A stretch of DNA of 64,000 bases, taken from an uncultured Gammaproteobacteria bacterium (lineage in GTDB: Bacteria > Pseudomonadota > Gammaproteobacteria > DRLM01). This document shows, in pieces, positions 1,388-57,139 of the stretch (its first letter is position 1; each line of letters opens with the position of its first letter). The stretch lies in assembly GCA_963729605.1 (NCBI GenBank), contig CAVSNY010000002.1, forward strand, positions 96,001 to 160,000. Reading direction: 5' to 3'. A program made the translations under genes and the position numbers. The notes beneath the pieces were generated by a model that saw only the letters and a program-made list of their open reading frames with translations, searched no databases and was not told the origin of the DNA.

Positions 1388-1390
1388 GAA

Positions 1391-31896: not shown

Positions 31897-32034
31897 GGGT
31901 CCGATCTGATTTTTTGTGAAGATTTAACCTGTGAGTACAGTATCAGTCGTGTTCCAGTCCGGCCGTCCTAGCGCACAGGATTCGCAGTTTGTTTGTTGCA
32001 ATTACCTTGAAATTATTAAAGCGAGCGCCTTGAT

Positions 32035-33489: not shown

Positions 33490-33495
33490 GTCGGC

Positions 33496-33858
33496 ATGAA
33501 CAAACCGGGGAATACGGGATTCAAGCGCATCGTTTGCGCCGCGACGTATTCCTTCGCCGGTTTGGCCTGGGCCTGGCGTCACGAGGCCGCCTTTCGTCAG
33601 GAGGTGCTGCTGGTCTTGGTGCTGGCGCCGCTCGGTTGGTACCTTGGCGACGGCGGCGTCGAGCGGGCGCTGCTGCTGGGTGTGTTGCTGCTGGTGCTGA
33701 TGGCCGAGTTGATCAATTCGGCGCTGGAGGCGGTGGTGGATCGTTTCGGCCACGAGCAACACCCACTCTCCAAGGCGGCGAAGGACATGGGGTCGGCGGC
33801 GGTGCTGGTCGCCTTGGTGAACGCGGCGGTGGTGTGGACGCTGGTGTTGACGGGATGA
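33496..33858 (+). CDS. dgkA: Diacylglycerol kinase
   Basis: HEAAFRQE, ELINSALEAVVDR, AKDMGSAAV. Confidence 0.93.
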   Translation: MNKPGNTGFKRIVCAATYSFAGLAWAWRHEAAFRQEVLLVLVLAPLGWYLGDGGVERALLLGVLLLVLMAELINSALEAVVDRFGHEQHPLSKAAKDMGSAAVLVALVNAAVVWTLVLTG

Positions 33859-39839: not shown

Positions 39840-41186
39840 TTACTCGGCCGTGTCCGCTTCCAGTTTGCCCACGAAACGGATGGTGTCGAAGCGGCGCTGC
39901 AATTGTTTGCTGAAGAAGTCCCGCATCAATATCCCTTCGCTGTAACGCACGCGGTCGCCGGTCCGAAACTCCATGCGGCCGGCGGCCAGCCATTCGCGGC
40001 CGTCGCCGTCGTCCACTTCCAGATAAATGTAGGTGCCGCCGTCCAGCGCCTCGGTAATCACCCCGGCGTGAGGGAGCTGCACGCGTTGGACGGGCACCGG
40101 CGCCGTGCCGCTCTTTTCTGAATTCAATGCCGCGCGCAGATCGCCTTGCGCATCGAAGGCGGCGACGAACGCGCTGTTGAAATAACCGTCTTGATTGGTC
40201 CCGCCGATCACGTAGAGCCGGTCGCGGACCACCAGCGCGCCGAAGTCGGCGAGAGGCAACGGCAGCGGCGTGGTTGCGCGCCAGGGTCCCGGCGCGCCGT
40301 CCGCGCCGTCCGCGCCGACGGCGCTGGTTTCGATGACGTCGTAAAAAGTGGCGCCGCTCAAACCGCCGAGGGTGTAAAGCCGGCCGCCGTGCGCGAGCGC
40401 GCTCAGACCATAACGGCCGTGTTGCAAGTCCGGTGCGTTTCGCCATTCGGCATCGCCATCGTCTTGCCGGAGCGCGCGCCATTCCACCGCGGTTTCACCG
40501 CCGCCGCCCTGCTGGGCGTGGCCGCCGGCGATATAAATGTGGTCGGCGGTTTGCGCCGCGCCGTGGATGTAACGGGGGATGGTCAAGGTTTGATCGAGCA
40601 GTTCCCACGCGCCGAGACTGCCGTCCTTGTGTATGCGCGCGCGTTCCACGCTGTCGAGCAGGGCGCCGCTGTAGCCACCGAAGGCGTAGAGGTAATCGCC
40701 GATCACCGCCACCTTGGCGCAACGGCGCGGCAGCCGCAGCGGCTGCGGTTCGGGTTGCCAGGGACCGAGCGCGCCGTCGGCGAGTATCGCCGCGCGTTCC
40801 ACGCTGCGTAATAGCGTGCTGCCGTTGGGGCCGTTGCCGCCGCCTACCGCGTAGATGAAATCGTTATGGGCCGCCACGCCGAAGAAACCGCGCGCCTCAT
40901 TCATCGCGCTGCCGGCGCGCCAGGCGGCGAGCGTGCCGTCGGCCTGCAACGCGGTGTACTCGCTGGTGTTCAAAAAACGCACGCCGTCCACGCCGCCGAC
41001 GGCATACAACATCCCGTTGACGGCGAGCACGCCCGCGCCGGCCCGCGCGGTGATCAACGGCGCGGTTTCTTGCCAGGCTTGGGTCGTGGCCTGGCCGGCG
41101 GTGACATTCATCATCAGCCCCAGGGCCAGCATCAGCAGCAGGGGCCGGTGAGTTTTGATACCCGCCTTGTGTGGTAAATGGTACAT
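39840..41186 (-). CDS. Exported Kelch-repeat beta-propeller with a C-terminal NrfJ-like OB-fold domain
   Basis: Hydrophobic signal segment; six Kelch blades (LYAVGG, IYAVGG, LYAFGG, IYIAGG, LYTLGG, LYVIGG); C-terminal GGTYIYLEV..WLAA..MRDFFSKQLQRRFDTIRFV. Confidence 0.75.
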   Translation of the reverse strand: MYHLPHKAGIKTHRPLLLMLALGLMMNVTAGQATTQAWQETAPLITARAGAGVLAVNGMLYAVGGVDGVRFLNTSEYTALQADGTLAAWRAGSAMNEARGFFGVAAHNDFIYAVGGGNGPNGSTLLRSVERAAILADGALGPWQPEPQPLRLPRRCAKVAVIGDYLYAFGGYSGALLDSVERARIHKDGSLGAWELLDQTLTIPRYIHGAAQTADHIYIAGGHAQQGGGGETAVEWRALRQDDGDAEWRNAPDLQHGRYGLSALAHGGRLYTLGGLSGATFYDVIETSAVGADGADGAPGPWRATTPLPLPLADFGALVVRDRLYVIGGTNQDGYFNSAFVAAFDAQGDLRAALNSEKSGTAPVPVQRVQLPHAGVITEALDGGTYIYLEVDDGDGREWLAAGRMEFRTGDRVRYSEGILMRDFFSKQLQRRFDTIRFVGKLEADTAE

Positions 41187-41188
41187 GG

Positions 41189-43270
41189 CTACGCCACCAC
41201 CTCGGTCTTGCCGAGTTCGGCCTCCAACGTGCTCAACTCCGTGATGGGCGCGGAACACTGAATGCCGGTGCAGACATACGCGGTGACCGTGCCGCGCGCG
41301 CCGCGTTCGGCGAGGGCGCCGGGCAGATTGCGCGCGTCGTTGGGAATGGCGATGGTGAAACGGCGCGGCGCGTAGAATCGCTGGGCCCGTGCCTGCCAGA
41401 TTTTCAGAGGTTCGCCTTCGCCGCGCAACACGATCAATTGCGGCGGATAGAGTTGATCCTCCAGCGCGGCGAGCAGGGAATCGTGGGCGTAGGGCAGATC
41501 GGACAAAGTGGTCCACGCTGCGTGCAGCGTATTTTCGGCGGCGGCGAGATAACGGTGGTTATTCAGCAAATGCCCCAGGCGGCCGAGCACCTGCGCCGCC
41601 ACGCCGTTGCCGGCGGGCGTGGCCTCGTCGCTATAGGGTTTGGGGCGATGAATGAGCGTTTCGTGATCGTCGGCGGTGAAGAAAAAGCCGCCGTGTTCTT
41701 TGTCTTCGTAATGCGCGAGCAGGCCGTCGGCCAAGGCCGCCGCGAACTCCAGATCGCCGTCGCGCCAGCGGGCTTGCAGCAATTCCAATATGCCGTCGAT
41801 GAGAAAGGCGTAGTCGTCGAGATAGGCGTTGAAGCGGGCGCGGCCGTCTTTGTACGCCGCCAGCAGGCGTCCGTCGCGCCAGAGTTGGGCGCGGATGAAA
41901 TCCAGCGCCCGCTCCGCCGAGGCGAGATAAGCCGGTTCGTCGAGCCGCCGCCCGGCGGCGGCCATGCCTTTGATCATCAGCCCGTTCCAACTGGTGAGGA
42001 CTTTTTCGTCGCGGCCGGGGCGCACGCGCCGTTCGCGCGTGGCGAATAACTTCGGGCGGGCGCCGTCGACGATCTTGAGGATTTCTTCCGGGGTCTTCGC
42101 AAAATTTTCCGCGAGGGCGCGCAGTCCCGTGAACACATGCAGGTGCCAATGGTGTTCAAAGTTGGGCGGACGGTCGAGGCCGTAGCGTTGCGCGATCACG
42201 GGATATTCCACGTCGTCCAACAGCGCGCGCGCCTCGTCGGGTGTCCACGCGTAAAATTTTCCCTCTTCGCCCTCGGAGTCGGCGTCCAAGGTGGCGTAGT
42301 AGCCGCCCGCCGGTGCCTGCATCTCGCGGACGGTCCAGTGCGCCGTCTCGTGGACGACGCGCAGGAACAGCGGATTGCCGGTGATCTGCCAGGCCTGCAC
42401 GTAGAGCGCGAGCAGCGGACCGTTGTCGTAGAGCATTTTTTCGAAGTGGGGAATCATCCACTGCTCATCGACGCTGTAGCGGTAGAAACCGCCGCCCAGT
42501 TGATCGTACAGGCCGCCGTCGGCCATCTTGATCAAAGTGGTGACCGCCATCTCCAGCGCTTGCGTATCGGCCTGGCTGCTCGATGACGTGGCGGCCCAGT
42601 GACGGAATAAACGTTCGAGATGGGTGGGATGGGGGAATTTCGGCGCCTGGCCGAAGCCGCCGTTTTGCGGGTCGTAGAGATGGCCGAGTTGATTGCGGGC
42701 GATGTCGAAGGGCGCGGGATTGATGGCGCCTTCGGCCGGCACCGGCGCGCCGAGGCTGTCCAGGACGCTCATCAGCTGCACGGTTTGTTTGTCGATGTCG
42801 CCGCGTTGTTCGCGGTAAAAGCCGGCGACTTGTTGCAAGACATCGCGGAACGACGGCATGCCGTAACGCGGCGTGTCGGGAAAATAGGTGCCGGCGAAAT
42901 ACGGCACGAGATCCCGCGGCAGGAGGAACACCGTGAGTGGCCAGCCGCCGCCGCGGCCGGCGAGGACTTGATGGGCGAGCTGATAAATCTTGTCGAGGTC
43001 GGGGCGCTCTTCGCGGTCCACCTTGATGTTGACGAACAGGCGGTTCATCAGCTCCGCGGTGGCGGGGTTCTCGAAGGATTCATGGGCCATCACGTGACAC
43101 CAGTGACAGGCGGAATAACCGATCGAGAGCAGGATCGGTTTGTCCTCGGCGCGGGCCCGCGCCAGGGCCGCGTCATTCCATGGGTGCCAGTCCACCGGGT
43201 TGTCGGCGTGCTGCAATAAATAGGGGCTGGTTTCCTGCGCGAGCAGGTTGCGGGGTCCGGACGGGTTCAT
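41189..43270 (-). CDS. YyaL/SSP411 (DUF255) thioredoxin plus alpha/alpha-barrel protein
   Basis: [51 protein letters not shown]. Confidence 0.95.
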
Positions 43271-43349
43271 GGTTTACCGCGACGAAGAGGGCTTGCCGCA
43301 GTATAACGCGTGGGGATGGAGGTGTCCCGCGCGCGGCGATCAAGGCGAT

Positions 43350-44267
43350 TTATTGCGAGGGCAGGAAGTCGACCGGCCAGGTGAAGACGATGCTGTCGAC
43401 GTTTTTGGCGCCGAATTGGAAGAGCTTGATGCGCGCCACCAGTTTGCGCACCAGATCGTCGTCCTTCAATTCCGAGGAGACCACTTTGCACTCGCTGACA
43501 TCGCCCGCCGGAGTGATGGTGATTTCCAAAACCACTTTGCCTTGCAAGGCCGGATTGGCGCGCAAGGCGCGGTGATACAGCGCGTAGATCGCGCCTTTGT
43601 TTTGATCGAGGATCAGTTGTATCTGTTCGGCGCTGCGGCCGGGCTTGCGGCCGTCGCGTTTGGGGTTGGCCTTTTGTTCGTCCTGCAAGGCCTGGCTTTC
43701 CACCACCGTGGTCTCGCGGGCGGCCAATTGGGCCTGCCCCGGCTCGCGAGCCAAGCTCGAGACGCTGATGCCGCCGCTGCCGCCGGTGGCGGTGGAGGTG
43801 ATGATGGAACGGCGGCCGCTATTTTGATCGCCGGCTTGCGTGAGCGGTTTGCCGGCCAGCACGCCGCTCAAGGAGTTTTGCCGCAGCGCGGCCAATTCAT
43901 TTTGCATGGCGAGCAAGCCGGTCTTGGCGGCCTTTTCGCGGGCCGCTTGCACGTCCGGCGCCGCCGCCTCTTTTTTCACCGCCGGCTTGGTCTCGTCGAG
44001 TTTTTTTTCCGGTTCGGGTTGGGGTTCTTCCAGCTTGGGCGGCGGCGGGGGCGGTTGAGGCTTTTCCTTGAGCACTAATTTCGCCAAACGCGGCGGCAGG
44101 CGTTCCGCTTCGACGCGATCGGGTTTGGGCACGTCCAACCACGCCACGACGATGCAGATGGCCAAAAACACCGCCAAGGTCACGCCGGTGATGAGGCGGA
44201 AGCGCTTTTCTTCCTCCAGCGCGGGGCTCCAAGGCAATTCCGTCGAGTGGTAGTAGGCGGCGCTCAT
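43350..44267 (-). CDS. TonB-like AgmX/PglI C-terminal-domain protein (GltG-like)
   Basis: LPW N-terminus, single TM, Pro-rich linker, C-terminal GAIYALYHRALRANPALQGKVVLEITITPAG..F. Confidence 0.82.
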   Translation of the reverse strand: MSAAYYHSTELPWSPALEEEKRFRLITGVTLAVFLAICIVVAWLDVPKPDRVEAERLPPRLAKLVLKEKPQPPPPPPKLEEPQPEPEKKLDETKPAVKKEAAAPDVQAAREKAAKTGLLAMQNELAALRQNSLSGVLAGKPLTQAGDQNSGRRSIITSTATGGSGGISVSSLAREPGQAQLAARETTVVESQALQDEQKANPKRDGRKPGRSAEQIQLILDQNKGAIYALYHRALRANPALQGKVVLEITITPAGDVSECKVVSSELKDDDLVRKLVARIKLFQFGAKNVDSIVFTWPVDFLPSQ

Positions 44268-44271
44268 GGGG

Positions 44272-44766
44272 TCAACCCGGCTTATTGTGCTTTTGCATCA
44301 CCGCCAGGGAGATGTTGGTGTATTCCGCCTGGGTGCAGGTGACCATGATTTTTTTCAGCAGCAGATAAGGTAGCTGCCGGTCGCCCATGATGGTGATCTC
44401 GCCCGCGCTCCGGCCGCCGTCTTGCCGTGAACGTTGGGCCTGATAACTCAGTTCCTCCAAGAGGCCGGGAATGAGGTCGTCCGCCGCGGCCAAGGATTCG
44501 GCGACGTCGGCGACCTTGCGGCCCTGTACCAGGATGTCCTGGTTATTGATCATCACCACGATGGTTTCCTTGGGCGTCTTCTCCGCGGTGGACACCGGCA
44601 GTTGCAAGGTTTTGCTGCTGGGCACGTTTTGCACGGTGGTGGAGTTGACCAGCAGGAAGAACACCAGAATGGTGAAGATGTCCATCAAGGACACCATGTT
44701 GATGAGGGCGACGCGTTTGCGCTTGTGATGGCGTTCCATGCGTTTGGCGCGGCGCGACATCTTCAT
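44272..44766 (-). CDS. ExbD/TolR-family protein (AglS-like)
   Basis: INMVSLMDIFTILVFFLL TM with the conserved Asp; IMGDRQLPY..IMVTC. Confidence 0.88.
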   Translation of the reverse strand: MKMSRRAKRMERHHKRKRVALINMVSLMDIFTILVFFLLVNSTTVQNVPSSKTLQLPVSTAEKTPKETIVVMINNQDILVQGRKVADVAESLAAADDLIPGLLEELSYQAQRSRQDGGRSAGEITIMGDRQLPYLLLKKIMVTCTQAEYTNISLAVMQKHNKPG

Positions 44767-45266
44767 GGGCGGGGCTCCGCGGGCCGTGGCGCATCGCCGA
44801 TGGAAATCTCGGGGAACAACTCCGCTTGTATCACTTCGCCTGCTTGCAGTACGGCGATGGAACGGGTGGCGTCCATCGCTTGAATGAGGACTTCATAAGG
44901 CGTGTTGTCTTCGGCGAGCAGGGTCGCGTCCAGTTTGTCGGGGAACCGCGCCTTGAGTTGCTGCAAGACTTCGCCGAGGAGTTTGAAATTATGGCGGCCG
45001 TTTTCGTTGTCGATGCGGCGGATCAGGCCGCCGCGGCGGTCCGCGACTTCCAGTGTGTCTTTGCGGATGACGATCTCCAATTGCAATGCCTTGCTCGGAT
45101 CGTCGGCGCTTTCCACCGCCGGCGGAATGTTGAGTTCCAGGATGCTGATATGGGAAAACACCGCGGTGATCAGCAAAAACGGCACCAGCGCCACCATTAG
45201 ATTCAGAAAGGCGGTGATATCCAGGTCGGGAGGAACCCGGGGATGGCGGTGGAAGCGGGCCCTCAT
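44763..45266 (-). CDS. ExbD/TolR-family protein (AglQ-like)
   Basis: LDITAFLNLMVALVPFLL TM; TPYEVLIQAMD; LFPEISIG. Confidence 0.85.
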   Translation of the reverse strand: MRARFHRHPRVPPDLDITAFLNLMVALVPFLLITAVFSHISILELNIPPAVESADDPSKALQLEIVIRKDTLEVADRRGGLIRRIDNENGRHNFKLLGEVLQQLKARFPDKLDATLLAEDNTPYEVLIQAMDATRSIAVLQAGEVIQAELFPEISIGDAPRPAEPRP

Positions 45267-45916
45267 TCCGGTGCGCCGTCCTTGTGGCGCTGTTCGCCGA
45301 TGATGTTAAGGAATTTCACCGCGGCCATTTCCAGGCTATCCACCAGTTCGGTGGTCTTGGTTTGCAGAAAGGCATAGGCCAGCAAGAGCGGGATGGCGAC
45401 GATGAGTCCCAGCGCGGTGGTGTTCATCGCCACCGAAATACTCGACGACAACAATTCCGCCTTCTGCGCCGGGTCGGCGCTGGCCACCGCGGTGAAGGCC
45501 TGGATCAAGCCGATGATGGTGCCGAGCAGGCCGAGCAGGGTGGCGATATTGGCGAAGGTGGCAAGATAGTGGGTGCGTTTTTCCAGGCGCGGCACCATTT
45601 CCATCATGCCTTCTTCCATGGCGGTTTCGATGTCGTCGCGTTGGCGCGCCGAGGTGAGCCGCGACAGGCCGTAGGCGAGGATTTTTCCCATGGCGGCGTT
45701 GGATTCGGTGGCGAGGGTCATGGCCTCGCGGTATTTGCCGGCGGCGATGAGCGGCAGCACGCCGTCCCACACCCGCAGGTTCAAGCGCCGGCTGTTGCTC
45801 AAATACAAAAAGCGTTCGATGGCGATGGCGAGGCCGATGGCGAGTACGATCAGGATGGGATACATGAAGGCGCCGCCTTCTTGTATGAATCGTACGATGG
45901 TGTTGAAACTGTCCAT
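45263..45916 (-). CDS. MotA/TolQ/ExbB proton-channel protein (AglR-like)
   Basis: IAIERF, ATLLGLLGTIIGLI, ISVAMNTTALGLIVAIP. Confidence 0.92.
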   Translation of the reverse strand: MDSFNTIVRFIQEGGAFMYPILIVLAIGLAIAIERFLYLSNSRRLNLRVWDGVLPLIAAGKYREAMTLATESNAAMGKILAYGLSRLTSARQRDDIETAMEEGMMEMVPRLEKRTHYLATFANIATLLGLLGTIIGLIQAFTAVASADPAQKAELLSSSISVAMNTTALGLIVAIPLLLAYAFLQTKTTELVDSLEMAAVKFLNIIGEQRHKDGAPE

Positions 45917-46267
45917 TCGAATCTCCTTGGGTCTTTATGTGCCAGTCAGCCGCCGCGCCGCGGGCCGGGCGGCGGCGTGCCATGCTAAATCCGGTCTGAA
46001 TGATGTCACTATTAACGGCCCTGGCCGGTGCTTCTTGATCGGAGCACTGCGCATTGCGAGCCATCCCGACATTTTGAACATTTTGAAATAGGGCTCCCGA
46101 ACCTACCGATACATTTTGCGCCTTGCCGCGGGCTTTCCCCGCCGTCAGCCGCTCGCCGAATCGCGATGGGGCCTTCAGGGCGGGCCGCGGTCGCCGGCCA
46201 ATAAGGCGTCGTCATGGGCGATCCCGCCCGCCGAATTCTCACCGCCTATTGCGAGATAGCGTGTACA

Positions 46268-46558
46268 TCACTTGCCGTTTTTAACGGGAGGGACGAAGTT
46301 ATGCAATCGTTCCACCTGCTGCGTCTTCAATTCATATACTGCGCGATCGATCGGCGCCAGCGGTTCATCCACCAAACGTTCCAGCGGCCAGTCCGGTATG
46401 GCGACATCGACGTCGCGCCAGGGAATGACGAAGGTGACCTTGGGCAGTTCGCGGTTGCCGAGGATGGTGGTGCGGTCCAATTCCAGGCGTTCTTCCGCGT
46501 GCGCCGGCGAGGTCAGCAGCGCGGCGCCCAATAGTAGCATGAGTAAGGCGTGCTTCAT
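46268..46558 (-). CDS. Small exported protein (GltF-like)
   Basis: Signal peptide plus ILGNRELPKVTFVIPW..LAPIDR motif; located between the TPR gene and aglR-like gene. Confidence 0.65.
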   Translation of the reverse strand: MKHALLMLLLGAALLTSPAHAEERLELDRTTILGNRELPKVTFVIPWRDVDVAIPDWPLERLVDEPLAPIDRAVYELKTQQVERLHNFVPPVKNGK

Positions 46559-47232
46559 GGCGAGGGTTGCTCCGTCGTTGAGCCGCTGTTGATGCGTTGC
46601 TGCAAATCCGCCAGCCAGCCCGCGAGCCGTTCATCGTCGGCGCCGTGTAATTGCTGGTAGCGCTGATAATGTTCGCGCGCCTTCAGTAGATCGCCTAGAT
46701 ATAAATCGTAGAGCATGGCCAGATTCAAATGCGCGTAGGCGTGATCGGGGCGGGCGGCGAGGGCCGCCTCGTATTCGGCGCGGGCGTCGTTGAATTTTCC
46801 TTGCTGGCGATAAAGGATGCCGAGGTAGTTGTGCGCGACGTAGTCTTTGCCGTTGATCGCGATCGCCTGTTTGAAAAACTGTTCGGCTTCCGCCGGCTGG
46901 CCGCGGCGAAAATACAAGATACCGAGATTGGTGCGGGGGCTCGCCAGTTGCGGATGGTCGTCGGCCAGCGCCTTGAACAACGTTTCGGCCTGTTGCTCCT
47001 GCCGGTCGTTCAGCGCGGCGATGGCTTGCTGGAGTTGCAGTTCGGCGGCGCTGGGCGGCGCCGGTTCTACCGGCGCGGCGGCGGGTGCATCGGTCTCGGC
47101 GGCGGGTGCGTTGACCACGCTTTCCACCGGCGGCGTAACGGGTTTGGGCGCGGGTGCGGCGCAACCGGCCAGCAGTGCGAGCAACAGCGCGGCGCCATGC
47201 AGGCTGGACGGTTTGTTAATAAAGCGTGTCAA
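46555..47232 (-). CDS. TPR lipoprotein (GltE/AglT-like)
   Basis: Lipobox LLAGC; TPRs (NLGILY, HNYLGILYR, HLNLAMLYDLYLG). Confidence 0.8.
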   Translation of the reverse strand: MTRFINKPSSLHGAALLLALLAGCAAPAPKPVTPPVESVVNAPAAETDAPAAAPVEPAPPSAAELQLQQAIAALNDRQEQQAETLFKALADDHPQLASPRTNLGILYFRRGQPAEAEQFFKQAIAINGKDYVAHNYLGILYRQQGKFNDARAEYEAALAARPDHAYAHLNLAMLYDLYLGDLLKAREHYQRYQQLHGADDERLAGWLADLQQRINSGSTTEQPSP

Positions 47233-50200
47233 GGTACGCCTCCCCCTGTTCCACTTTGGAATAACGCACGGGCAGCAGTTTGCTCAGCGCCGCGAAACTT
47301 TTCTGCACCCACTCGTCGTAAATATTCTCCGCGCTGCGGCGGGCGTTGGCTTCGTACAAGGCGATGGCCTCTTCCTCGAAAGGATAGGCCTGTTCCTCGA
47401 GCAGGACGTTGTATTGTTCGAGTTCTAGTTCACTCAAACCGGCGGGCCGTTCGGAATCGAGCAGGGCGGCGCCGAATTCGGCGTAAATCTCCGCGGTGTG
47501 ATGGGTGGCGGCGGTGGTGACGCCGGCCACGCCGTAATCGGCGGCCTGGCGATAGGCTTGCAACGCGTCTTCCATGGCCTTTTTCTTCAATTTCAGGCTG
47601 GCCTCCAGCGGCCGGGTGAGTTTGGCGCGCGCGAAGTCGTCGTAGCGGGTTTGCGCCAAGTTGAGCGCGGCATGGGCGGCGAGGAAACGAGTACGGTCGC
47701 TGCGCGCCGCGCCGCCCTTTTGTTCGGCGGCGACCAGTTGCGCCAGCCACCGCTGCCGTTGGTCGGCGTCGCCGCGCTGCGCGTACAGGTCGGCGATGCG
47801 CTGATGGGCCTCCACCGCGTCGTCCAGCGGTTGCGGATATTGCCGCACGTAGTCTTGGAAAATCCGTAGCGCGTCCTGCGGCCGTTCGGAGCGCGCGTAC
47901 AACTCCGCCGATTGCCACAAGGCGTCGCGCTTGAGTTCGGGATCGTCGCCTTGGGCGGCGAGTTTTTCCAGTTCGCCGGCCGCGAGTCCCCAGTCGCGGT
48001 TGTTTTGATAGGCCACCGCCAGCTTCGCGCCCAGGTCTTTTTGCAGGGGATGGGCCGGGTAGTCTTTGCGGAAACGTTCCAGTACCGCGATAGCGGCCGG
48101 CCAGTCTTCCAAGATCAGCAATTGCGCGGCGGCGTCGTAGTCGGCGTTGACGCGGCTGGGCGCGCCGGGCGCGCGTTGTCCCACCCGCAGGAAGTGTTGC
48201 GCCGCGGCGCGGTGCTCGCCGTTTTGCGCGGCCTGTTCGCCTTGTTTGTAAATGGCGGCGGCCAAACGTTCCTCCGCGTCGCGGTGATTGCCGCCGGTCT
48301 GAACGGCGAGGGTCAGCACTTCTTGATAACTCGTTTCGGCGGCGGCGTAGCGCTGCGTCTCGAATTCGCTGTAGGCGACGATGCGCCACGCGCCCAGACG
48401 GTATTCGGGCGGGGGCGGCGGCGTGCGCGCGATGATGTCGCGGGCGATTTTTTCGGCGCCGGGCAAATCCTGTCCGCTGAATAAAATCTGCGCCGCCTGG
48501 ATTTGGGTCGCCAGCGCGCGCGGGTCGGCGGGATACTCGGCGGTGAAATTCAGCAGGGCGGCGATGGTGCGTTGCCGCGCGGCGTCGCGTTCGGCGCCGC
48601 TCAGGTTCGCCTCGAATTTTTCGTGGGCGATGATCGCCGCGTAGGCGGCCTCGGCGCGTTTGGGATAAGCGGGATAGTCGGCGGCCACCCGCTGGTATTC
48701 GCGGATGGCGTCTTCATAAGCGCGGTTTTCGAAGAGCGACTCGGCCAGCAGGAAATGGGTTTCCGCGGCGGCGGGGTCGGCGGGGAAATCGTGCAGGAAG
48801 CGGCGATACCAGACTTCGGCGGCGCGGTAATCCTCGGCTTGCCCGCTGCGCTGGGCGCGGGCGTGATGATAGTGGGCGAGGTCCTGGATATAGCCGCGCA
48901 CTTGTTCGATGGTGGCGGTGCGTTCCAGCGCCGGATTGCTGGCCCAATAGGCGCTGTCCGCGGCATAGCGGTTCACGAATTCTTCCTTGTTGGCGAGGAC
49001 CCGGCTGGTGAAGCCGCCCTGTTCATACACGCTCAGCACATGGGCCTGGAATAGCGGCGCGCGCGGATCGTCCGGGTGCCGTTCGATGAAGGCGCGGTAG
49101 GCGCCGGCGGCGTCTTCGATGCGCTCCTGTTCCAAGTAAAGTTCGGCCAGCGCCGCGTAGAGGCGATGTTCGTAGGGGCGCGGCCCGGTCTGGGAGAAAT
49201 AGCGGGCGAGGGACTGCGTGCCGTTGAGTTGCGACAAACTCAAACTGACGACGCGCAGCACGTCGTTGACCATCTCGGCGTCGCCGCGGCTGAGGGCCGG
49301 ATCGGCGTTGACCGGCGCGGCGGCCTCCTCCTTGAATTTGCGTTCGAGCAGCGTGAGGAAGGATTCCAAGGCGAGGTTGTGGCGGTTTTCCTTGTAGAGA
49401 GACCAGCCGTGTTTGTAGAGGGCCTTTTCGTAATAGGGCGAGTTCGCGCCCAGCACCACCACGGCGCCGTAAGCCTGGGCCGCCTGCTCGGGCAGGCCCA
49501 GCGCGAACAGCAATTCGCCGCGGCGGAATTGTACCTCGTCGGCATAGGGGCTGGCCGGATATTCGCGGGCCAGGCGGTCGAGGGTGTCGAGCAGCGCGTC
49601 GGTTTCGCCGGCGTTGTAATAGACATTGGCCAACTGGTAGAGCACCCGGTCATTGTCGGGTTTGCCGGGGTAGGCGTGCAGCAAATGATTGTAGGCGGTG
49701 ATGGTGCCTTGGTAGAGCTGGTTCACCGCGGCGGCGGTGGCCTGCTCATTCGAGCCGGCCTTGGCCATCAGTTCGGTGTAACGGCCTTCCGCCTTGAGCA
49801 TCTCCAAATAGGCCAGGCGCTGCATGGCCTCGCGGCGGTGCGGCAGGGTGTTGCCGCCGTTGACGAAGTCGCGATAGGCGGCGATAGCCCGGTCGTAGTC
49901 GGCGGTTTTTTTATCGCCGCCGGTCGCCAGCCGGTCATAGGCCTGGGCGAGGCCCAGGCGGGCTTGGGCGAGATAGGCGGCGAGATTTTGTTTGTGCGTT
50001 TGCACCGCGCGGGTCAGGAGGGTGTGTAAATAATCGCGGTGCTGGGCCGCCAGCCGTTCGCTCTCCGCCAGCAACCGGGTCTGGCGGACGCGCATTTGGT
50101 TGAGGGCGTCGCTTTGGCCGCTGAAGTTATTCTTGGCCCGCTCGCTGATTTGGCGGAGCAGGTCCTGCATGCGCGCCGCGTCGGCCAATACCTTGTCGAG

Positions 50201-51826
50201 TTCGATGAAGGCCTTTTTGGCCTCCCACAGGCGGATGGGATAGGCCTTGCTCAAGTCGTTCAGCAGCAGGCCGCGCAGCAGGAGGTATTTGTCGTTCAAG
50301 TCCTGGTGTTCGGCCAGGATGTCTTTGTTGCGCTCCAAGCGTTGCTCGAAGCGGTGGAGGATGGCGAGCTGGCGTTTCTCCTTGCTATTGGCCAGCGCGG
50401 TGACGTCGCCGTCGTTTTCGGCGCGTTTCAATTCTTCTTGCAGGGCTTGGCCTTCGCTGAGCACGCCGGAGCGTTCGAGATTTTTTCGGTATTCGGTGAT
50501 CTTGGGCAGCAGGCGGTCATGATGGGCGCGTTGCGCGTTGAGCAGGCTCGCATAGGCCTCGATGTCGGCGCCGGCGGTGCGCATGGCGTTTTGCAGGTAA
50601 AGCAGGTTGCGATAATTTTTGAAGGTCTCCTGAAAGTCGTGGCGGCTGGAGGCTTCCGTGAAATAAATGCTGGCGGGATGATCCGGCAGGCTGTCGGGCC
50701 GCCAGGTCCAGCCGGCTTCTTCCCCGCCCGCGCTGGCGGCGAACAAGGCCGCGAAGTAGCTGCCGTCGCCGATGGCCGCCGCCGCGTCATCGAGCCGGCG
50801 CTGTTCGGTTTCATAGTCGCGCAGGGCTTGTTCATAGGCGGCGATCGCCGCGGGATATTCCTGCAACTGATAATGGGCGCGCGCCGCGCCGAGCGCGCCT
50901 TCCTGCGCCACCGCGCCGCGGCCGCCGCGTTGCGCCAGCGTCGTCCAGTTCTCCGCCGCCGCGCGGTAGTCGCCGCGCAGGTAATCGGCCCAGCCCGCGC
51001 CGAGCAGGGCCGGGTCGCTTTCGGCGCGGGCGAGGGCGGCGCATATCGAGGACAGGTTCGCGCACTGCACGGGGTCGCCGCTGATCCGCGCGAAGACCGC
51101 GCGGGCGCGCTCGAACTGGTTTTGTTTGAGGAAGTAATAACCCAGTTTTATATTGACGAGGTTGCGCAGGCTTTGGCCGCGGGACGTGTACGGCGCGCTT
51201 TGCGCCAGTTGTTCCAAGATCGCGAGACCTTCCGGCGCGCGGCGCGCGTCCAGCAGGGCGACGCCCAGATTGTAGCGGCCGAAGTCGCTCCATTCGTCCT
51301 GGCCTTGCAGGGTCTTGGCCGCCGCGATGGCTTCCTGATAACGCTTGCGCGCCAGCAGCAGGGTCGCGAGTTGGTAATCCCGTTCGCTTTGGATGGCGCC
51401 GGGCGTGAGGTCTTTAAGATTGGCGAGGGCGGCTTCCGCCTCGACCAGGTAACCGCGTTGGGCGAGCTGGCGGGCGAGGGTGAGCCAGGCGTCTTGACGG
51501 ATCGCAACGCCTTTGGCGCCGAGCTCGCGCAATAATTCGCCGGCCGCCTCGGGCAGGCCCAGGGCGAGATAGAGATCGGCGAGGGTGTGGGTGGCCTGGT
51601 CGGCGCGCGCGGCGATTTCCGGGAGGCGTTGCGCCTTTCGCAATTCGCCGAGGGCGGTGAAGTAGCGCCCTTGCAGGGAATAGTATTCGACCGGTCCCAA
51701 TTCGAGGTCGCTGACCGCCCGCGCGCGTGCCGCGTCCAGCGTTTCCGCGGCGTGCGGCGCCGTCGCCACGAAGGTCGACAGCGCGGCCGCGAGGCATCCG
51801 ATGAATAATGAACTGCGCGCTGCCAT
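47216..51826 (-). CDS. Very large exported TPR/coiled-coil protein (GltD/AgmU-like, probable two-gene fusion)
   Basis: Signal peptide, many TPRs, central coiled coil, EVQFRRGELLF, YKHGWS, C-terminal LDSERP..LEEQAYPFEE..WVQKS..PVRY. Confidence 0.8.
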   Translation of the reverse strand: MAARSSLFIGCLAAALSTFVATAPHAAETLDAARARAVSDLELGPVEYYSLQGRYFTALGELRKAQRLPEIAARADQATHTLADLYLALGLPEAAGELLRELGAKGVAIRQDAWLTLARQLAQRGYLVEAEAALANLKDLTPGAIQSERDYQLATLLLARKRYQEAIAAAKTLQGQDEWSDFGRYNLGVALLDARRAPEGLAILEQLAQSAPYTSRGQSLRNLVNIKLGYYFLKQNQFERARAVFARISGDPVQCANLSSICAALARAESDPALLGAGWADYLRGDYRAAAENWTTLAQRGGRGAVAQEGALGAARAHYQLQEYPAAIAAYEQALRDYETEQRRLDDAAAAIGDGSYFAALFAASAGGEEAGWTWRPDSLPDHPASIYFTEASSRHDFQETFKNYRNLLYLQNAMRTAGADIEAYASLLNAQRAHHDRLLPKITEYRKNLERSGVLSEGQALQEELKRAENDGDVTALANSKEKRQLAILHRFEQRLERNKDILAEHQDLNDKYLLLRGLLLNDLSKAYPIRLWEAKKAFIELDKVLADAARMQDLLRQISERAKNNFSGQSDALNQMRVRQTRLLAESERLAAQHRDYLHTLLTRAVQTHKQNLAAYLAQARLGLAQAYDRLATGGDKKTADYDRAIAAYRDFVNGGNTLPHRREAMQRLAYLEMLKAEGRYTELMAKAGSNEQATAAAVNQLYQGTITAYNHLLHAYPGKPDNDRVLYQLANVYYNAGETDALLDTLDRLAREYPASPYADEVQFRRGELLFALGLPEQAAQAYGAVVVLGANSPYYEKALYKHGWSLYKENRHNLALESFLTLLERKFKEEAAAPVNADPALSRGDAEMVNDVLRVVSLSLSQLNGTQSLARYFSQTGPRPYEHRLYAALAELYLEQERIEDAAGAYRAFIERHPDDPRAPLFQAHVLSVYEQGGFTSRVLANKEEFVNRYAADSAYWASNPALERTATIEQVRGYIQDLAHYHHARAQRSGQAEDYRAAEVWYRRFLHDFPADPAAAETHFLLAESLFENRAYEDAIREYQRVAADYPAYPKRAEAAYAAIIAHEKFEANLSGAERDAARQRTIAALLNFTAEYPADPRALATQIQAAQILFSGQDLPGAEKIARDIIARTPPPPPEYRLGAWRIVAYSEFETQRYAAAETSYQEVLTLAVQTGGNHRDAEERLAAAIYKQGEQAAQNGEHRAAAQHFLRVGQRAPGAPSRVNADYDAAAQLLILEDWPAAIAVLERFRKDYPAHPLQKDLGAKLAVAYQNNRDWGLAAGELEKLAAQGDDPELKRDALWQSAELYARSERPQDALRIFQDYVRQYPQPLDDAVEAHQRIADLYAQRGDADQRQRWLAQLVAAEQKGGAARSDRTRFLAAHAALNLAQTRYDDFARAKLTRPLEASLKLKKKAMEDALQAYRQAADYGVAGVTTAATHHTAEIYAEFGAALLDSERPAGLSELELEQYNVLLEEQAYPFEEEAIALYEANARRSAENIYDEWVQKSFAALSKLLPVRYSKVEQGEAYLDTLY

Positions 51827-51840
51827 GGCGGGGATCGGGC

Positions 51841-52374
51841 CTAATACTCCTTGATGGCCAGGGGACGGTCTTTGTTCGCCGGGCTGAGCTTGATTTCGAG
51901 GTATTTCGCGGTCAGGTCTTTTTCGAAGTTGCTGTTGAAGCTGTAATTGCGGTCCTTGCCGATGACGGTCACGCTGAGCTTGTGGTGACCCACCGCGACG
52001 TTGCCTTCATAGAGGCGCTGCACGCCGCCGCGGCGCAGGGCGTCCTGTTCCCTTTCTGTGTACAGGTAATTCACCACCGTGCGGTTGTCCAGTTGCAGTT
52101 GCACGGAGTCGATCGGCGTATTGTCCCGGTCGTCGAGGGAGAGGAAGATGTTCACCTTGGTGGTGGTGGGCGACAACAGGTCGTCTTGCAGGCGGAGCAA
52201 ATCCTGTTGCAGGTCGAGCATGTCTTTGCTGAGCGATTTCACCCGCTCCTCCAGGCTGCGGAAGTCCGGGTCCGGCTGGATGGTGAAGCGGTCGGGAATG
52301 TTGCCGTCGCCCAGCACTATGCCCGGCAACAAGGCCAGCAAAAAGCCGATGATTCGTCGTGTCAGCATGGTCAC
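51841..52374 (-). CDS. Conserved exported protein of Agl/Glt-like clusters
   Basis: Signal peptide, coiled coil, FLSLD..DSVQLQLD..YLYTEREQDALRRGGVQRLY. Confidence 0.7.
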   Translation of the reverse strand: MTMLTRRIIGFLLALLPGIVLGDGNIPDRFTIQPDPDFRSLEERVKSLSKDMLDLQQDLLRLQDDLLSPTTTKVNIFLSLDDRDNTPIDSVQLQLDNRTVVNYLYTEREQDALRRGGVQRLYEGNVAVGHHKLSVTVIGKDRNYSFNSNFEKDLTAKYLEIKLSPANKDRPLAIKEY

Positions 52375-52599
52375 CCCATTGGATCGTTTTTTACTCTACC
52401 CCCCGCTCCGTCCGCTCCCTATGTCGGGGCGGGAACCCGGGGGAATTTCGTCTTGATAATCGACATAACCGGCTTCTCGGTACCGCGTTGCGCTCGCCTC
52501 GCCGGCCCGATCCGCGCACAGGAGCGGATTTGTTCGGGCCGGAAGATGGGCGCGTTACGCGGAACGGCGGTGATGAGGCGCAGGCGTGCCGCCGGTTAC

Positions 52600-53157
52600 T
52601 TATTGCCACTCACTCAATAATTGACGCAGCTCTTTTTCATACTCCGCCTCGTCCGTATCGCGATAACCTTTATGAAGGAAGCGCTGTTTGCCATCTTTAT
52701 CGACCAGCACCAGGGCCGGCATAAGGTCGATCTGGTAACGCGGCGCGATCATCTTGTCGCGGTCGATGAGGATGGGAAAATCGAGACGCAGACCGGCGGC
52801 GGTGGCCTTGGCCTGGCCCAGATCGAGGTCGGTGGCCAGGGCGAAGACGCGCAAGCCTTGATCGGCGTAGCGCTGGTGCAAGGCATTCAAGGCGTGCAGT
52901 TGTTGTTCGCAGGCGCGGCAGCGGTTTTTCAGGAAGGCCAGCATCACCACCTGGCCGCGGTATTCCGCCAGGCGCAGGTTGTCGCCTTGGATGCTTTTCA
53001 GGGTGAAGTCCGGCGCGGGCGGAGTTCCCGGGAGCGGGGCGGCGGCCAGGCCCGGCGCGACGATCAATAGCAATAACACTACCCCGGCGCCCCACATGCT
53101 CAGCGGGGAGGGTGCGGTGCGCGGATGTGAGTGTCCTGCTGCTGGATTCATCGTCAT
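52600..53157 (-). CDS. TlpA/redoxin-family periplasmic thioredoxin-like protein
   Basis: APDFTLKS, RGQVVML, CRAC (CxxC), MPALVLVDKDG. Confidence 0.85.
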   Translation of the reverse strand: MTMNPAAGHSHPRTAPSPLSMWGAGVVLLLLIVAPGLAAAPLPGTPPAPDFTLKSIQGDNLRLAEYRGQVVMLAFLKNRCRACEQQLHALNALHQRYADQGLRVFALATDLDLGQAKATAAGLRLDFPILIDRDKMIAPRYQIDLMPALVLVDKDGKQRFLHKGYRDTDEAEYEKELRQLLSEWQ

Positions 53158-53356
53158 TTAGACTGTGGGGTTTGAATCAATTTTTCGCGCGGAGCGGTAG
53201 GCGGCGCGAGTTCGCTGGTTGCAGGCGAAGGCCCGATGCGGTGGCTAAGGATAACACCAAATTCGGAACGGGCGTAAGCGCGGCGCGCCATCCGCCGCGC
53301 GAGCGCGTGTTATGATGCGGATTCGCTTAAATCAGCCCCAAGGTTGATTATCCATC

Positions 53357-54130
53357 GTGATCGCATCTACTTCATCGCCGCGTTTCCCCCGCGATTACAC
53401 CGTCCCCACGGTGGCCTTGCTCTTGCTCGCCGCGCTGTTGTCGTCGGGCGGCAACATGCCGGTGTTTCTATTTTTCAATCAGCCGGCCTCGCCCGCCGTC
53501 GCCGCGCTGTGGGCGCATTGGACGGTGCTGGGCGATGCCCTGTTGTTGATGGTGTTGACGCTGGTCTTCGTGGGCCGTCGGCCCGACGTGGTGTGGGCGG
53601 TGTGGATCGCCGCCATCGTCACTACCTTGGCGGTACATGGTTTGAAGCTCTGGCTGGCCGTGCCGCGCCCGCCCGCCCTGCTGGACCCGGCGCACTTGCA
53701 GGTGGTGGGTCAGGTGTTGCGCGGCGAATCGTTTCCTTCCGGGCATACCACGGCGGCCTTCGCCTTCGCGGGAGTGCTGATCTTGAGCCTGCGCCGGGTC
53801 TGGGTGACGGTCTTGCTGTTGAGTGTGGCGCTGGGTGTGGGTATATCGCGGATGGCGGTGGGCGCGCATTGGCCGGTGGATGTGCTGACCGGTGCGGCAC
53901 TGGGTTGGTTGGGTGCATGCGCCGCCATGGTCTTGACGCAACGCTGGGCCTGGGGCCTGTCGCTGACGGCGCAGCGCATCATGGCGGCACTCTTGGTGAC
54001 GGCCGCGCTGGTGATGTTATGGGGGCATGACAGCGGTTATCCTCAGACCGCGATCATGCAGCGGGCACTGGCCCTGGTGGCCTTGGCGGCGGGTACGCCC
54101 GGCCTGATCCGCTTGGCGCGGGGCCGGTGA
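53357..54130 (+). CDS. PAP2-family membrane phosphatase
   Basis: K..RP, SFPSGH, SRMAVGAHWPVD. Confidence 0.9.
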   Translation: MIASTSSPRFPRDYTVPTVALLLLAALLSSGGNMPVFLFFNQPASPAVAALWAHWTVLGDALLLMVLTLVFVGRRPDVVWAVWIAAIVTTLAVHGLKLWLAVPRPPALLDPAHLQVVGQVLRGESFPSGHTTAAFAFAGVLILSLRRVWVTVLLLSVALGVGISRMAVGAHWPVDVLTGAALGWLGACAAMVLTQRWAWGLSLTAQRIMAALLVTAALVMLWGHDSGYPQTAIMQRALALVALAAGTPGLIRLARGR

Positions 54131-54160
54131 GCCGCGGGCGTGCCGATTAATCTCCACCGG

Positions 54161-54244
54161 ACCGCCCAGCCGCCGGACGTGCTTTCTGCTCTATCAATCC
54201 AATCGGTCCGGAAATTTTCCTGGCGTCCTTGGCGGCTGGGCGGT
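54161..54244. repeat. 14-bp perfect inverted repeat (REP-like or terminator) between convergent genes
   Basis: ACCGCCCAGCCGCC / GGCGGCTGGGCGGT. Confidence 0.55.
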
Positions 54245-54268
54245 TTACGATTTTCTTAACGCATTAGC

Positions 54269-55144
54269 TCAAGACCCGGAACGGCGCTTGTGTTCCATCA
54301 TGTCGTGGATGATGGGGGTGAGGATGATCTCCATCGCGAAGCCCATCTTGCTGCCCGGCACCACCAGGGTATTGGGACGCGACATCCACGAGTCGTGGAT
54401 CATCTGCATGTAATACGGGAAGTCGTGCTTCTTGGGATAGCGGAAGCGGATGACGATGAAGCTTTCGTCCGGGGTCGGGATGTCGCGGGCGATGAAGGGA
54501 TTCGAGGTGTCGACGATCGCCACCCGCTGGAAGTTGATGTCGGTGCGCGAGAACTGCGGGGTGATGTACTGCACGTAGTCCGGCATGCGGCGCAGGATGG
54601 TGTCGACGATGGCGTCGGCGGAATAGCCGCGCTCTTTGTTGTCGCGATGGATCTTCTGTATCCACTCCAAGTTGACGATGGGCACCACGCCGATCAATAA
54701 ATCCACCCATTGAGCGACGTCGATGCCGTCGGCCACCACGCCACCGTGCAGTCCTTCGTAAAACAGCAGATCGGAACCGGGCGCGATGGGTTCCCACGGC
54801 GTGAAGGTGCCGGGGGCGGCGTTGTGCAGCGCGGCTTCTTCGTCGTTGTGGATGTAATACCGTTTCTGGCCCGTGCCGGTTTCACCGTAGGTGCGGAACA
54901 ACTCTTCCAGTTTGTCGAAGACATTGGCCTCGGCGCCGAAGTGGCTGAGGGTGCGGCCCTCTTTGCGGGCCTTTTCGACGGCTTCGCGCATGGTGGCGCG
55001 GTCATAACGGTGAAAGCTGTCGCCTTCCACCACCGCGGCCTTCAAGCCTTCGCGGCGGAAGATGTGCTCGAAGGCGTTTTTCACCGTGGTGGTACCGGCG
55101 CCCGAAGATCCGGTGACGGCGATGACGGGGTGTTTCTTTGACAT
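54269..55144 (-). CDS. prk: Phosphoribulokinase
   Basis: HPVIAVTGSSGAGTT, EGDSFHRY, FYEGLHG, NLEWIQKIHRD, DTSNPFIAR. Confidence 0.95.
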   Translation of the reverse strand: MSKKHPVIAVTGSSGAGTTTVKNAFEHIFRREGLKAAVVEGDSFHRYDRATMREAVEKARKEGRTLSHFGAEANVFDKLEELFRTYGETGTGQKRYYIHNDEEAALHNAAPGTFTPWEPIAPGSDLLFYEGLHGGVVADGIDVAQWVDLLIGVVPIVNLEWIQKIHRDNKERGYSADAIVDTILRRMPDYVQYITPQFSRTDINFQRVAIVDTSNPFIARDIPTPDESFIVIRFRYPKKHDFPYYMQMIHDSWMSRPNTLVVPGSKMGFAMEIILTPIIHDMMEHKRRSGS

Positions 55145-56421: not shown

Positions 56422-57120
56422 CTACGCGGTCTTTTTGCTGTGCAAGCCGCATTCTTTCGATTCCGGATTCTCCCACCACCAACGGCCGGCGCGGATGTCT
56501 TCGCCCACGGCGATGGCGCGGGTGCAGGGCGCGCAGCCGATGCTGGGATAGTGCCGGTCGTGGAGGGCGTTGTACGGCACGTTGAAATGGCGGATGTAGT
56601 CCCACACGTCGTGGTGGGTCCAGTCGATCAGCGGGTTGAATTTTTGCAGGCCGTTGCCGGCGTCCCACTCGGAGACGCCGAGGTCGGTGCGGGTGGGGGC
56701 CTGTTCGCGGCGCAGGCCGGTGATCCAGGATTTTTTACCTTGCAACGCGCGCTGCAGGGGTTCCACTTTGCGCATGTGGCAGCAGCTCTTGCGCAGCTCG
56801 ACGCTCTCGTAAAAGGCGTTCGGGCCGTGTGCGGCGATGTACTGTTCGACCGCCTCGTGCCTGGGAAAATACGGCGTGAAACGTCGGCCGTAACGGGCCA
56901 TGGCCGTCTGCATCAAGTCGTAGGTTTCCGCCGGCAGGCGGCCGGTGTCGAGCGTGAAGATTTCGATGGCGGGCGCGTGTTGGCAGATGAGGTCGGTGAG
57001 CAGCATGTCTTCGGCGCCGAAGCTGTTGGCGAAGGTCGCCGGCGCGTGCTCGGTGGCGATGGTGCGCAGCACCGCGACCGCCGCGTCGATTTTATCCTGT
57101 AAATCCGGGCGCAAACTCAT
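56422..57120 (-). CDS. cysH: Adenylyl-sulfate (APS) reductase, CysH family, 4Fe-4S type
   Basis: LDTG, CCHMRKVEPL, TGLRREQ, SIGCAPCT, ECGLH. Confidence 0.93.
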   Translation of the reverse strand: MSLRPDLQDKIDAAVAVLRTIATEHAPATFANSFGAEDMLLTDLICQHAPAIEIFTLDTGRLPAETYDLMQTAMARYGRRFTPYFPRHEAVEQYIAAHGPNAFYESVELRKSCCHMRKVEPLQRALQGKKSWITGLRREQAPTRTDLGVSEWDAGNGLQKFNPLIDWTHHDVWDYIRHFNVPYNALHDRHYPSIGCAPCTRAIAVGEDIRAGRWWWENPESKECGLHSKKTA

Positions 57121-57139
57121 CTCAACACTCTCCACTTAA

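Follow-up and report, generated by a model that had tools for sequence, protein, structure and literature searches.

What machine is encoded by nine co-oriented genes that join a MotA/TolQ-type motor to a tetratricopeptide repeat (TPR) protein of 1536 amino acids (aa), and what does it move? The question is raised by a locus on contig CAVSNY010000002.1 of an uncultured Gammaproteobacteria bacterium (GenBank assembly GCA_963729605.1). The window, meaning the whole stretch of DNA analysed, comprises 64,000 nucleotides (nt; positions 96,001 to 160,000 of the contig), and the cluster occupies positions 43350-53157 on its minus strand. The cluster most probably is one more copy of the Agl-Glt core complex, from a gammaproteobacterium, and drives an unknown cargo. 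This type of system has been in print since 2011, and the window contributes a further member.

The cluster and its match to the published core

An open reading frame (ORF) check of the window found nine ORFs between 43350 and 53157, all on the minus strand and in the same direction. The gene list of the initial annotation, running from TlpA to a TonB-like protein, is borne out by these ORFs and their domain matches, and so are the overlapping start and stop codons that it had pointed out: C and D overlap by 17 nt, and D and E, F and G, and G and H by 4 nt each. The ORFs, with the two parts of the largest one, are as follows.

A, 52600-53157, minus strand: 185 aa; TlpA/ResA-like redoxin, CXXC at C80/C83
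B, 51841-52374, minus strand: 177 aa; exported, signal peptide
C, 47216-51826, minus strand: 1536 aa; TPR_6, TPR_14 and YfiO-type repeats
C, N-terminal part (aa ~1-642), 49900-51826, minus strand: GltC-like module with its own signal peptide
C, C-terminal part (aa ~643-1536), 47216-49899, minus strand: GltD-like TPR solenoid
D, 46555-47232, minus strand: 225 aa; GltE-like TPR outer-membrane lipoprotein, lipobox Cys24
E, 46268-46558, minus strand: 96 aa; exported, signal peptide
F, 45263-45916, minus strand: 217 aa; AglR-like MotA/TolQ/ExbB proton-channel subunit
G, 44763-45266, minus strand: 167 aa; first ExbD/TolR-like subunit, AglQ position
H, 44272-44766, minus strand: 164 aa; second ExbD/TolR-like subunit, AglS position
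I, 43350-44267, minus strand: 305 aa; GltG-like TonB-type transducer with AgmX/PglI-type C-terminal domain

The gliding genes of Myxococcus were divided into two groups by Luciano et al. 2011 (PLoS Genet, PMC3169522). Group A (gltA, B, F, H, I, J and K) is given there as confined to Myxococcales and Bdellovibrionales, and Group B consists of gltC, D, E and G together with aglR, Q and S. A single Group B cluster was reported in seven Gammaproteobacteria, one betaproteobacterium and Geobacter, and a partial one in Fibrobacter; the authors labelled it a core complex 'of unknown function'. In the clusters from outside the deltaproteobacteria one additional small gene lies between gltE and aglR (PMC3169522). 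The core is the presumed ancestor of the gliding and spore-coat machines of Myxococcus, and its function in non-gliding bacteria was still called unknown in 2013 and 2020. A literature search made without subscription journals and ~1.7 million PMC articles found no later functional study of the core complex and no paper mentioning six locus tags of published cores.

The core of Thioalkalivibrio sp. HL-EbGR7 is listed in Table S3 of that paper (PMC3169522) as the closest homologues of the M. xanthus genes: Tgr7_0543 (GltC, 620 aa), Tgr7_0542 (GltD, 922 aa), Tgr7_0541 (GltE, 190 aa), Tgr7_0539 (AglR, 222 aa), Tgr7_0538 (AglQ, 168 aa), Tgr7_0537 (AglS, 170 aa) and Tgr7_0536 (GltG, 535 aa), with Tgr7_0540 as the extra gene that has no entry in the table. 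This core and that of the window have a common gene order and near-identical sizes, and each forms one co-oriented cluster without Group A genes. Since order and sizes match Tgr7_0536-0543, the window cluster is taken to be a copy of the published system. F, G and H present an aglR-type gene followed by two co-oriented ExbD/TolR-type genes (PF01618, PF02472), and are adjoined by a TonB-like protein of the GltG/PglI type, I. The TPR proteins C and D are located 5' of the motor and have the architecture, order and sizes of Tgr7_0541-0543, D taking the position of Tgr7_0541; the GltE model gives only 41.7 bits against a cutoff of 225. E (46268-46558) is the extra small gene between gltE and aglR. 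Its position equals a locus-tag gap (Tgr7_0540 and the like) in seven clusters listed in Fig. S1 and Table S3, which makes it the 'additional gene' of the non-deltaproteobacterial cores (PMC3169522).

There are also differences from the Thioalkalivibrio core. GltC and GltD are separate proteins there, while C of the window is a fusion of both and lacks the GltD signal peptide; GltG has 535 aa there, compared with the 305 aa of I; and gene B and the TlpA neighbour of the window have no entry in the Thioalkalivibrio cluster as the paper tabulates it (PMC3169522). The fusion and the short form of I are thus variants on the published system.

The initial annotation had matched the cluster to an aglRQS-gltDEFG core. 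The Agl/Glt type stands on gene order, sizes and the AgmX/PglI domain, but the gene set 'gltDEFG' is wrong: the published core is aglRQS with gltC, D, E and G plus one extra small gene. GltF is limited to Myxococcales and Bdellovibrionales in PMC3169522, and E, which by position only occupies the place of gltF in the Myxococcus G1 cluster, is the 'additional gene' instead. TlpA must likewise be taken out of the core, as it is absent from the published one and resembles a piece of an adjacent redox module. The 'giant TPR protein' does exist as a TPR protein of 1536 aa, but it is not a single Glt protein. The remark that related cores occur in non-gliding proteobacteria with no known function agrees with the 2011 account (PMC3169522).

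The same arrangement recurs in other genomes. Relatives were sought with F as the query in one genome per species, and the best 80 of at least 603 loci were kept. Homologues of F number at least 8000 protein clusters at E <= 1e-10, and a relative of F is encoded in at least 603 of the 606 candidate stretches of species-representative genomes. Among the best 80 loci are those of Woeseiaceae, Steroidobacteraceae, Thiogranum, Thioalkalivibrio, Acidiferrobacterales, Thiodiazotropha, Cellvibrio, Marinobacter, Hahellaceae, Nevskia and Fontimonas; Thioalkalivibrio, Cellvibrio, Marinobacter and Hahellaceae are common to these loci and the list of PMC3169522. Synteny was counted by tblastn with the window proteins at 1e-5, using 65 loci that reach 3 kb or more downstream of F and 46 that reach 9 kb or more upstream of it. 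In all 65, F is followed by G, H and I. Of the 46 upstream-complete loci, 45 contain D, 44 contain C, 39 contain B, 35 contain E and 26 contain A. The gene order B-C-D-E-F-G-H-I is repeated on one strand in many gammaproteobacterial lineages, and the arrangement is far beyond chance.

In two loci, L060 (13023-19537) and L074 (12633-15970), the cluster is followed at once by another copy of itself (TlpA/B/GltC/GltD-like), partial or complete. These tandem copies resemble the duplications of the core reported for Marinobacter and Saccharophagus (PMC3169522).

Motor, transducer and TPR platform

F matches MotA_ExbB (PF01618) with 105 bits, and G and H match ExbD (PF02472) with 47.3 and 60.7 bits, respectively. 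None of the equivalog models of the classical systems reaches its cutoff: TolQ gives 67.8 bits on F against 221, ExbB 42.6 bits on F against 206.2, TolR 29.7 bits against 127.3 (the best model for H) and ExbD 17.3 bits against 123.45. This supports the view of the initial annotation that the cluster is neither a standard TonB nor a standard Tol system. The closest PDB relatives of F by sequence are TolQ (4e-9) and ExbB (9e-7). The transmembrane Asp29 of H is invariant (53 of 53 aligned sequences). The corresponding residue of G, position 22, is Asn in 50 of 52 aligned sequences and Asp in the other 2, which marks the ExbD-like pair, judged by sequence, as asymmetric, with a single protonatable Asp supplied by H. 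G and H would form a heterodimer.

In I a short cytoplasmic N-terminus (~22 residues) precedes a single transmembrane helix, after which come a Pro-rich stretch, a linker and an end domain of the AgmX/PglI type. The last is recognised by NF033768, the AgmX/PglI C-terminal domain model (62.3 bits, cutoff 40), and the TonB_C family is just reached (25.0 bits, cutoff 24.6). The GltG equivalog gives 39.8 bits against a cutoff of 650, its match being confined to residues 214-298. An L-P-W motif in the cytoplasmic segment is conserved (L in 53, P in 50 and W in 59 of 60 sequences). No conserved His is present in the transmembrane helix across the 60 sequences; a His-bearing transmembrane motif is described as defining TonB/TolA (PMC12204202).

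C is the most distinctive protein of the cluster. In 38 loci a GltC-like ORF of ~620 aa is followed directly by a separate GltD-like ORF of ~935 aa, with a 4-nt overlap in 33 of the 38. The separate GltD-like proteins have their own signal peptide in 9 of 9 aligned relatives and a lipobox-type Cys in 8 of 9. The junction alignment of C, by comparison, has the GltC-like end continuing in frame into the first conserved helix of the GltD-like part, without the GltD signal peptide and ~50 linker residues. The junction is located at window positions 49860-49960 (aa ~625-655 of C), and the length of C, 1536 aa, is close to the sum of 620 aa for Tgr7_0543 and 922 aa for Tgr7_0542. The same junction is found in 16 aligned fused proteins, and of the 27 best database matches to the junction region 25 have lengths of 1500-1694 aa, at identities between 97% and 33%. 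An origin of the ORF from an assembly frameshift was considered and rejected, as the junction is in frame, the signal-peptide segment is gone and the form is recurrent down to 33% identity. By its distribution among sequences the in-frame GltC-GltD fusion is the mark of a clade, and such a fusion argues that GltC and GltD work as one functional unit. The fused C lacks the GltD lipobox, which leaves D as the sole lipoprotein of the window set. Two TPR models pass their cutoffs on C as repeated TPR units, namely TIGR02795 (CpoB/YbgF; 108.1 bits, cutoff 90.1, spread over 7 stretches) and TIGR03302 (BamD; 84 bits, cutoff 81.4).

C also carries an insert of 15 aa with two Cys residues, C255 and C262 (window 51040-51090, aa 250-265). 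It is missing in all 33 aligned GltC-like relatives and is lineage-specific. The two residues are the only Cys pair in the mature Glt-like proteins, in a cluster that opens with a TlpA-like reductase.

Complex prediction, which had been proposed in the initial annotation, was run for C 645-1440 with I 105-305, with a separate alignment for each, and yielded a contact. The model has an ipSAE (interaction prediction score from aligned errors) of 0.61, compared with 0.00 for the best of 3 controls. Among solved complexes 116 of 157 pass the mark applied to this score, and among mismatched pairs 2 of 215 do so; these counts are only rough here, where own alignments were used. At least 69% of contacts are common to the runs, and the partner's pLDDT (predicted score of the local distance difference test) is at least 68. 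The predicted interface joins C 814-1381 to I 146-200, 214-236 and 300: the linker of I (146-200) would run along the concave face of the TPR solenoid, with the end domain touching it at 214-236 and 300. PDB sequence searches with I and with C gave nothing meaningful, so that the model is unlikely to have passed by recalling a solved complex. The model favours binding of I to the GltD-type groove, and an AlphaFold study of the M. xanthus machine proposes the same kind of contact between GltG and GltD (PMC11761067).

B, which has no Pfam or NCBIfam match, immediately precedes the GltC-like gene in 39 of 46 loci. It is a conserved ninth gene beyond the published core and is proposed here as a ninth subunit. 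An AlphaFold2 model from a 29-row alignment (pLDDT 86, predicted template modelling score 0.62) has a signal peptide, a helix of ~30 residues (36-67) and an eight-stranded Ig/transthyretin-like beta-sandwich; the single-sequence fold is mediocre (pLDDT 68.6). With either model Foldseek returned 0 PDB matches at E <= 0.001; what appeared were generic beta-sandwiches, which imply no function. The profile search with B returned 1566 representative clusters at E <= 0.001, and nearly all of the best 150 of these are stand-alone proteins of 150-330 aa. In the protein atlas B and E fall only into clusters without a family. One atlas cluster name met in this look-up, 'putative AraC family transcriptional regulator', was rejected and is taken as a mis-annotation of a signal-peptide protein.

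E has no family match in Pfam, NCBIfam or the protein atlas. It is too divergent for tblastn to follow, which detects it in 35 of 46 loci; by ORF clustering its family includes 54 ORFs in 54 loci and has two conserved motifs. D has many TPR family matches in Pfam, falls far below the cutoff of NF033758 (GltE), and has a lipobox-like motif in 39 of 46 relatives.

The sequences themselves show the parts with their signals for export, the conservation of their order, the fusion, and the difference between Asp in H and Asn in G. The families of the proteins suggest a motor that is driven by protons and works through I on a TPR platform associated with the outer membrane. In the mechanism proposed for it, judging by the families, F would be a MotA/TolQ-type proton channel around the G-H heterodimer, of which H alone keeps the transmembrane Asp. 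Proton flow would drive the single-pass, TonB-like I, whose long periplasmic linker, according to the complex model, would occupy the concave groove of the GltD-type solenoid, with its AgmX/PglI-type end predicted to dock on the same protein. The solenoid, fused to the GltC-like module, is probably kept under the outer membrane by lipoprotein D together with E and B, a holding role suggested for the three because their genes are conserved and partly overlapping. Energy of the inner membrane could in this way reach the outer-membrane-associated TPR platform, and there a cargo not encoded in the cluster would be moved, exposed or assembled. A machine driven by proton-motive force with an unknown cargo, as the initial annotation had it, is therefore supported, the proton drive being read from the families. 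Our best guess for the cargo is an envelope or surface component, possibly tied to a TlpA/ApbE/DUF3570 redox module.

Motor relatives are present in at least 603 species-representative genomes, yet no function is known in any non-gliding bacterium. New leads are supplied here by the ninth gene B, the GltC-GltD fusion clade, the predicted contact of the transducer with the groove, and the recurrent redox-module neighbourhood.

Gliding, redox and Tol- or Ton-like alternatives

Several points weigh against an Agl-Glt-type transport machine. Homology to AglR/Q/S and GltC/D of M. xanthus is drawn from the tables of the 2011 paper and from synteny, and a branching with the Agl/Glt proteins of M. xanthus, apart from the Tol/Exb clades, is presumed from the trees of that paper and from the genera it shares with the loci used here; the myxobacterial equivalogs of GltE and GltG are far from reached, and no NCBIfam model of GltC, GltD or AglRQS matched the cluster proteins. 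F is nearest by sequence to TolQ in both PDB and NCBIfam. The CpoB/YbgF and BamD models are above cutoff on C, and a Tol-like envelope role therefore fits the scaffold equally with transport. No cargo or outer-membrane component was identified in the window. The A-B (225 nt) and E-F (351 nt) gaps are sizeable, which makes a single operon no more than a possibility; the H-I and B-C gaps are 4 and 14 nt. A promoter scan (3 sites, 2.1 expected) and a terminator scan (20 sites, 16.5 expected) of positions 42800-53600 stayed at chance level and are uninformative on operon limits, and Rfam gave zero matches in 42500-54500 at E <= 0.1.

The E-F gap (45917-46267) is unusually long, the corresponding gap of relatives being ~55-200 nt. 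It has no Rfam match and a promoter-like site only at chance level, and it could house an internal promoter.

The Agl-Glt/Agl-Nfs machines of Myxococcus xanthus have three layers in common with the window: a motor driven by proton-motive force, made of one protein of MotA/TolQ type and two of ExbD type; a transducer that resembles TonB and ends in an AgmX/PglI domain; and a periplasmic TPR scaffold of the GltC/D/E type. The predicted contact of I with the groove resembles the AlphaFold model of Myxococcus GltG-GltD. Unlike them, the window has no adjoining GltA/B/H/K barrels, GltI/J, GltF, CglB or cytoplasmic platform, I has merely ~22 cytoplasmic residues, and the M. xanthus equivalog models do not reach their cutoffs. 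Pfam and NCBIfam scans of flanking ORFs within the 64 kb turned up no gene of Group A (gltA, B, F, H, I, J and K, or their nfs equivalents) in the cluster or its flanks. The cluster is not a gliding motor, because the Myxococcus-specific outer-membrane and cytoplasmic parts are absent from it and its flanks; gliding by non-myxobacterial carriers of the core is not expected by Luciano et al. either (PMC3169522).

The neighbourhood of the core provides another candidate role. A matches AhpC-TSA (74.7 bits) and Redoxin (60.3 bits), and reaches 75.1 bits with the ResA subfamily, under the cutoff of 170; its CXXC is kept in 20 of 20 relatives. Of the 46 loci, 26 have an A-like gene upstream in the same orientation; in 18 it is the gene next to B, and by ORF coordinates it abuts or overlaps B in some lineages. 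Pfam scans place ApbE and DUF3570 among the conserved flank families, and a small flank ORF with a Cys-x-Cys tail fits DUF4266. ApbE is present in 20 of 46 related loci, DUF3570 in 10 of 46 and a DUF4266-like ORF in 10 of 46; in 3 of 54 loci it is I that ApbE follows. A thioredoxin-like protein with DUF4266, DUF3570 and ApbE is described as a flavinylation cluster of uncertain function (Meheust et al. 2021, PMC8238504).

The complete TlpA-DUF4266-DUF3570-ApbE module, or the module without ApbE, is co-oriented directly upstream of B and the core in L004, L008, L013 and L043 (all four at about 500-3700), and likewise in L010, L014, L041 and L058. ApbE stands immediately 3' of the GltG-like gene, and not upstream, in L052:9495-10499, L061:12742-13845 and L073:12901-13935, which belong to Thiodiazotropha and a Kangiellaceae metagenome-assembled genome (MAG).

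From this neighbourhood it may be argued that the Agl-Glt core, instead of being a transporter in its own right, is the mechanical, force-generating partner of the extracytosolic thiol/flavin redox module, with B as an unlisted subunit and the flavinylated, OMP-like DUF3570 as the missing outer-membrane endpoint, which would be gated, inserted or energised, for example in metal handling. At least one of TlpA, ApbE and DUF3570 is upstream on the same strand in 30 of the 46 upstream-complete loci, the module flanks either end of the core in different lineages, and the DUF3570 ORFs have an aromatic C-terminus like that of outer-membrane proteins. However, 16 of the 46 loci are without any upstream module gene, and the adjacency is perhaps merely inherited within related lineages. 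The window itself has the redoxin only and not the flavinylation set: tblastn with representatives found no ApbE or DUF3570 within the 64 kb, the Glt-like periplasmic proteins have no conserved Cys for TlpA to act on, and no [ST]GA[ST] flavinylation motif is present in the cluster proteins of the window. We regard this partnership as an outside candidate, the likeliest of the alternatives to the Agl-Glt reading and still improbable. For these reasons A is probably an accessory or a remnant of the TlpA-DUF4266-DUF3570-ApbE module, and the redox link is a lead. Were the partnership true, a machine that has lacked an explanation since 2011 would gain its first functional handle, and the transduction of force by protons would be tied to electron transfer in the periplasm.

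Tol-Pal and the window cluster have motors of one superfamily, TolQ being the closest solved relative of F, and both include a TolA/TonB-like transducer and TPR repeats of the CpoB type. A second Tol-Pal-like system of envelope maintenance has accordingly to be weighed, in which the motor would pull a CpoB/BamD-like TPR platform tethered to the outer membrane, with no transport of cargo, and would keep the outer membrane attached or coordinate growth of the wall and the outer membrane. It is suggested by the affinity of F to TolQ (4e-9 in PDB, 67.8 bits in NCBIfam), by TolR as the best model of H, by the passing scores of TIGR02795 and TIGR03302 on C, and by databases that call the relatives 'TolA-binding protein' or 'BamD'. 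The TolQ and TolR scores are, however, far under their cutoffs, the CpoB-type TPR model is the only feature of Tol-Pal to pass, and the TPR scores are sums over 7-8 repeat stretches without CpoB architecture. I ends in an AgmX/PglI-type domain. The window also differs from Tol-Pal in its two different ExbD-like subunits and in a TPR protein of ~1500 aa beside a separate lipoprotein. In agreement with the initial annotation, the scanned window ORFs include no TonB-dependent receptor, TolB or Pal, and neither do the 11 flank families scanned. A maintenance role of this kind is slightly less probable than the redox partnership.

Least likely by far, and very improbable, is a specialised ExbB-ExbD-TonB energiser of TonB-dependent uptake with TPR accessories and receptors encoded elsewhere: the common motor superfamily with one MotA/ExbB-type and two ExbD-type proteins, a TonB_C-like end domain barely above the Pfam threshold and a 2020 preprint that treats AglRQS-GltG as a TonB-like unit speak for it, but the ExbB and ExbD equivalogs are missed by a wide margin, no receptor gene adjoins the cluster or is found in the scanned ORFs and flank families, I lacks the conserved transmembrane His of the TonB motif as defined in PMC12204202, and its linker is predicted in a TPR groove and not in a receptor plug.

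Genes around the cluster

Genes next to the Agl-Glt-type cluster were considered as members of the system. The DUF255 (41189-43270) and Kelch genes on the downstream side and the PAP2 and phosphoribulokinase genes on the upstream side were rejected, as they do not recur in the 80 loci. The first of these encodes, on the minus strand directly downstream of the cluster, a DUF255/thioredoxin-like protein of 693 aa. The Kelch-repeat protein (39840-41516, minus strand) has an S-G-A-T motif at about residue 387; the listed start of its ORF overlaps the DUF255 gene by ~330 nt and is probably placed too far upstream. Neither gene recurs beside the core elsewhere.

A protein of ~540 aa with a twin-arginine signal and no Pfam match is recurrent near the core in other genomes. 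It is upstream in L033 (942-2585), L045, L068 and L070, and downstream on the opposite strand in L030 and L035; tblastn places it upstream of the core in 7 of 46 loci.

For most long ORFs of the crude gene call in the region 17393-33762 of the window, Pfam gave nothing at E <= 1e-5. These ORFs may have been called in the wrong frame of GC-rich DNA, or the region may be a run of genes without characterised relatives.

Near the cluster are genes for phosphoribulokinase (54269-55144; 516 bits), an APS/PAPS reductase (56422-57135), a sulfite reductase with a TusA domain (57418-59733) and a TauE sulfite exporter (59791-60492). This set of genes suggests a gammaproteobacterium that is autotrophic and metabolises sulfur. 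In keeping with this, F has its nearest relatives in MAGs of Acidiferrobacterales, Sulfuricaulis and Thiogranum.

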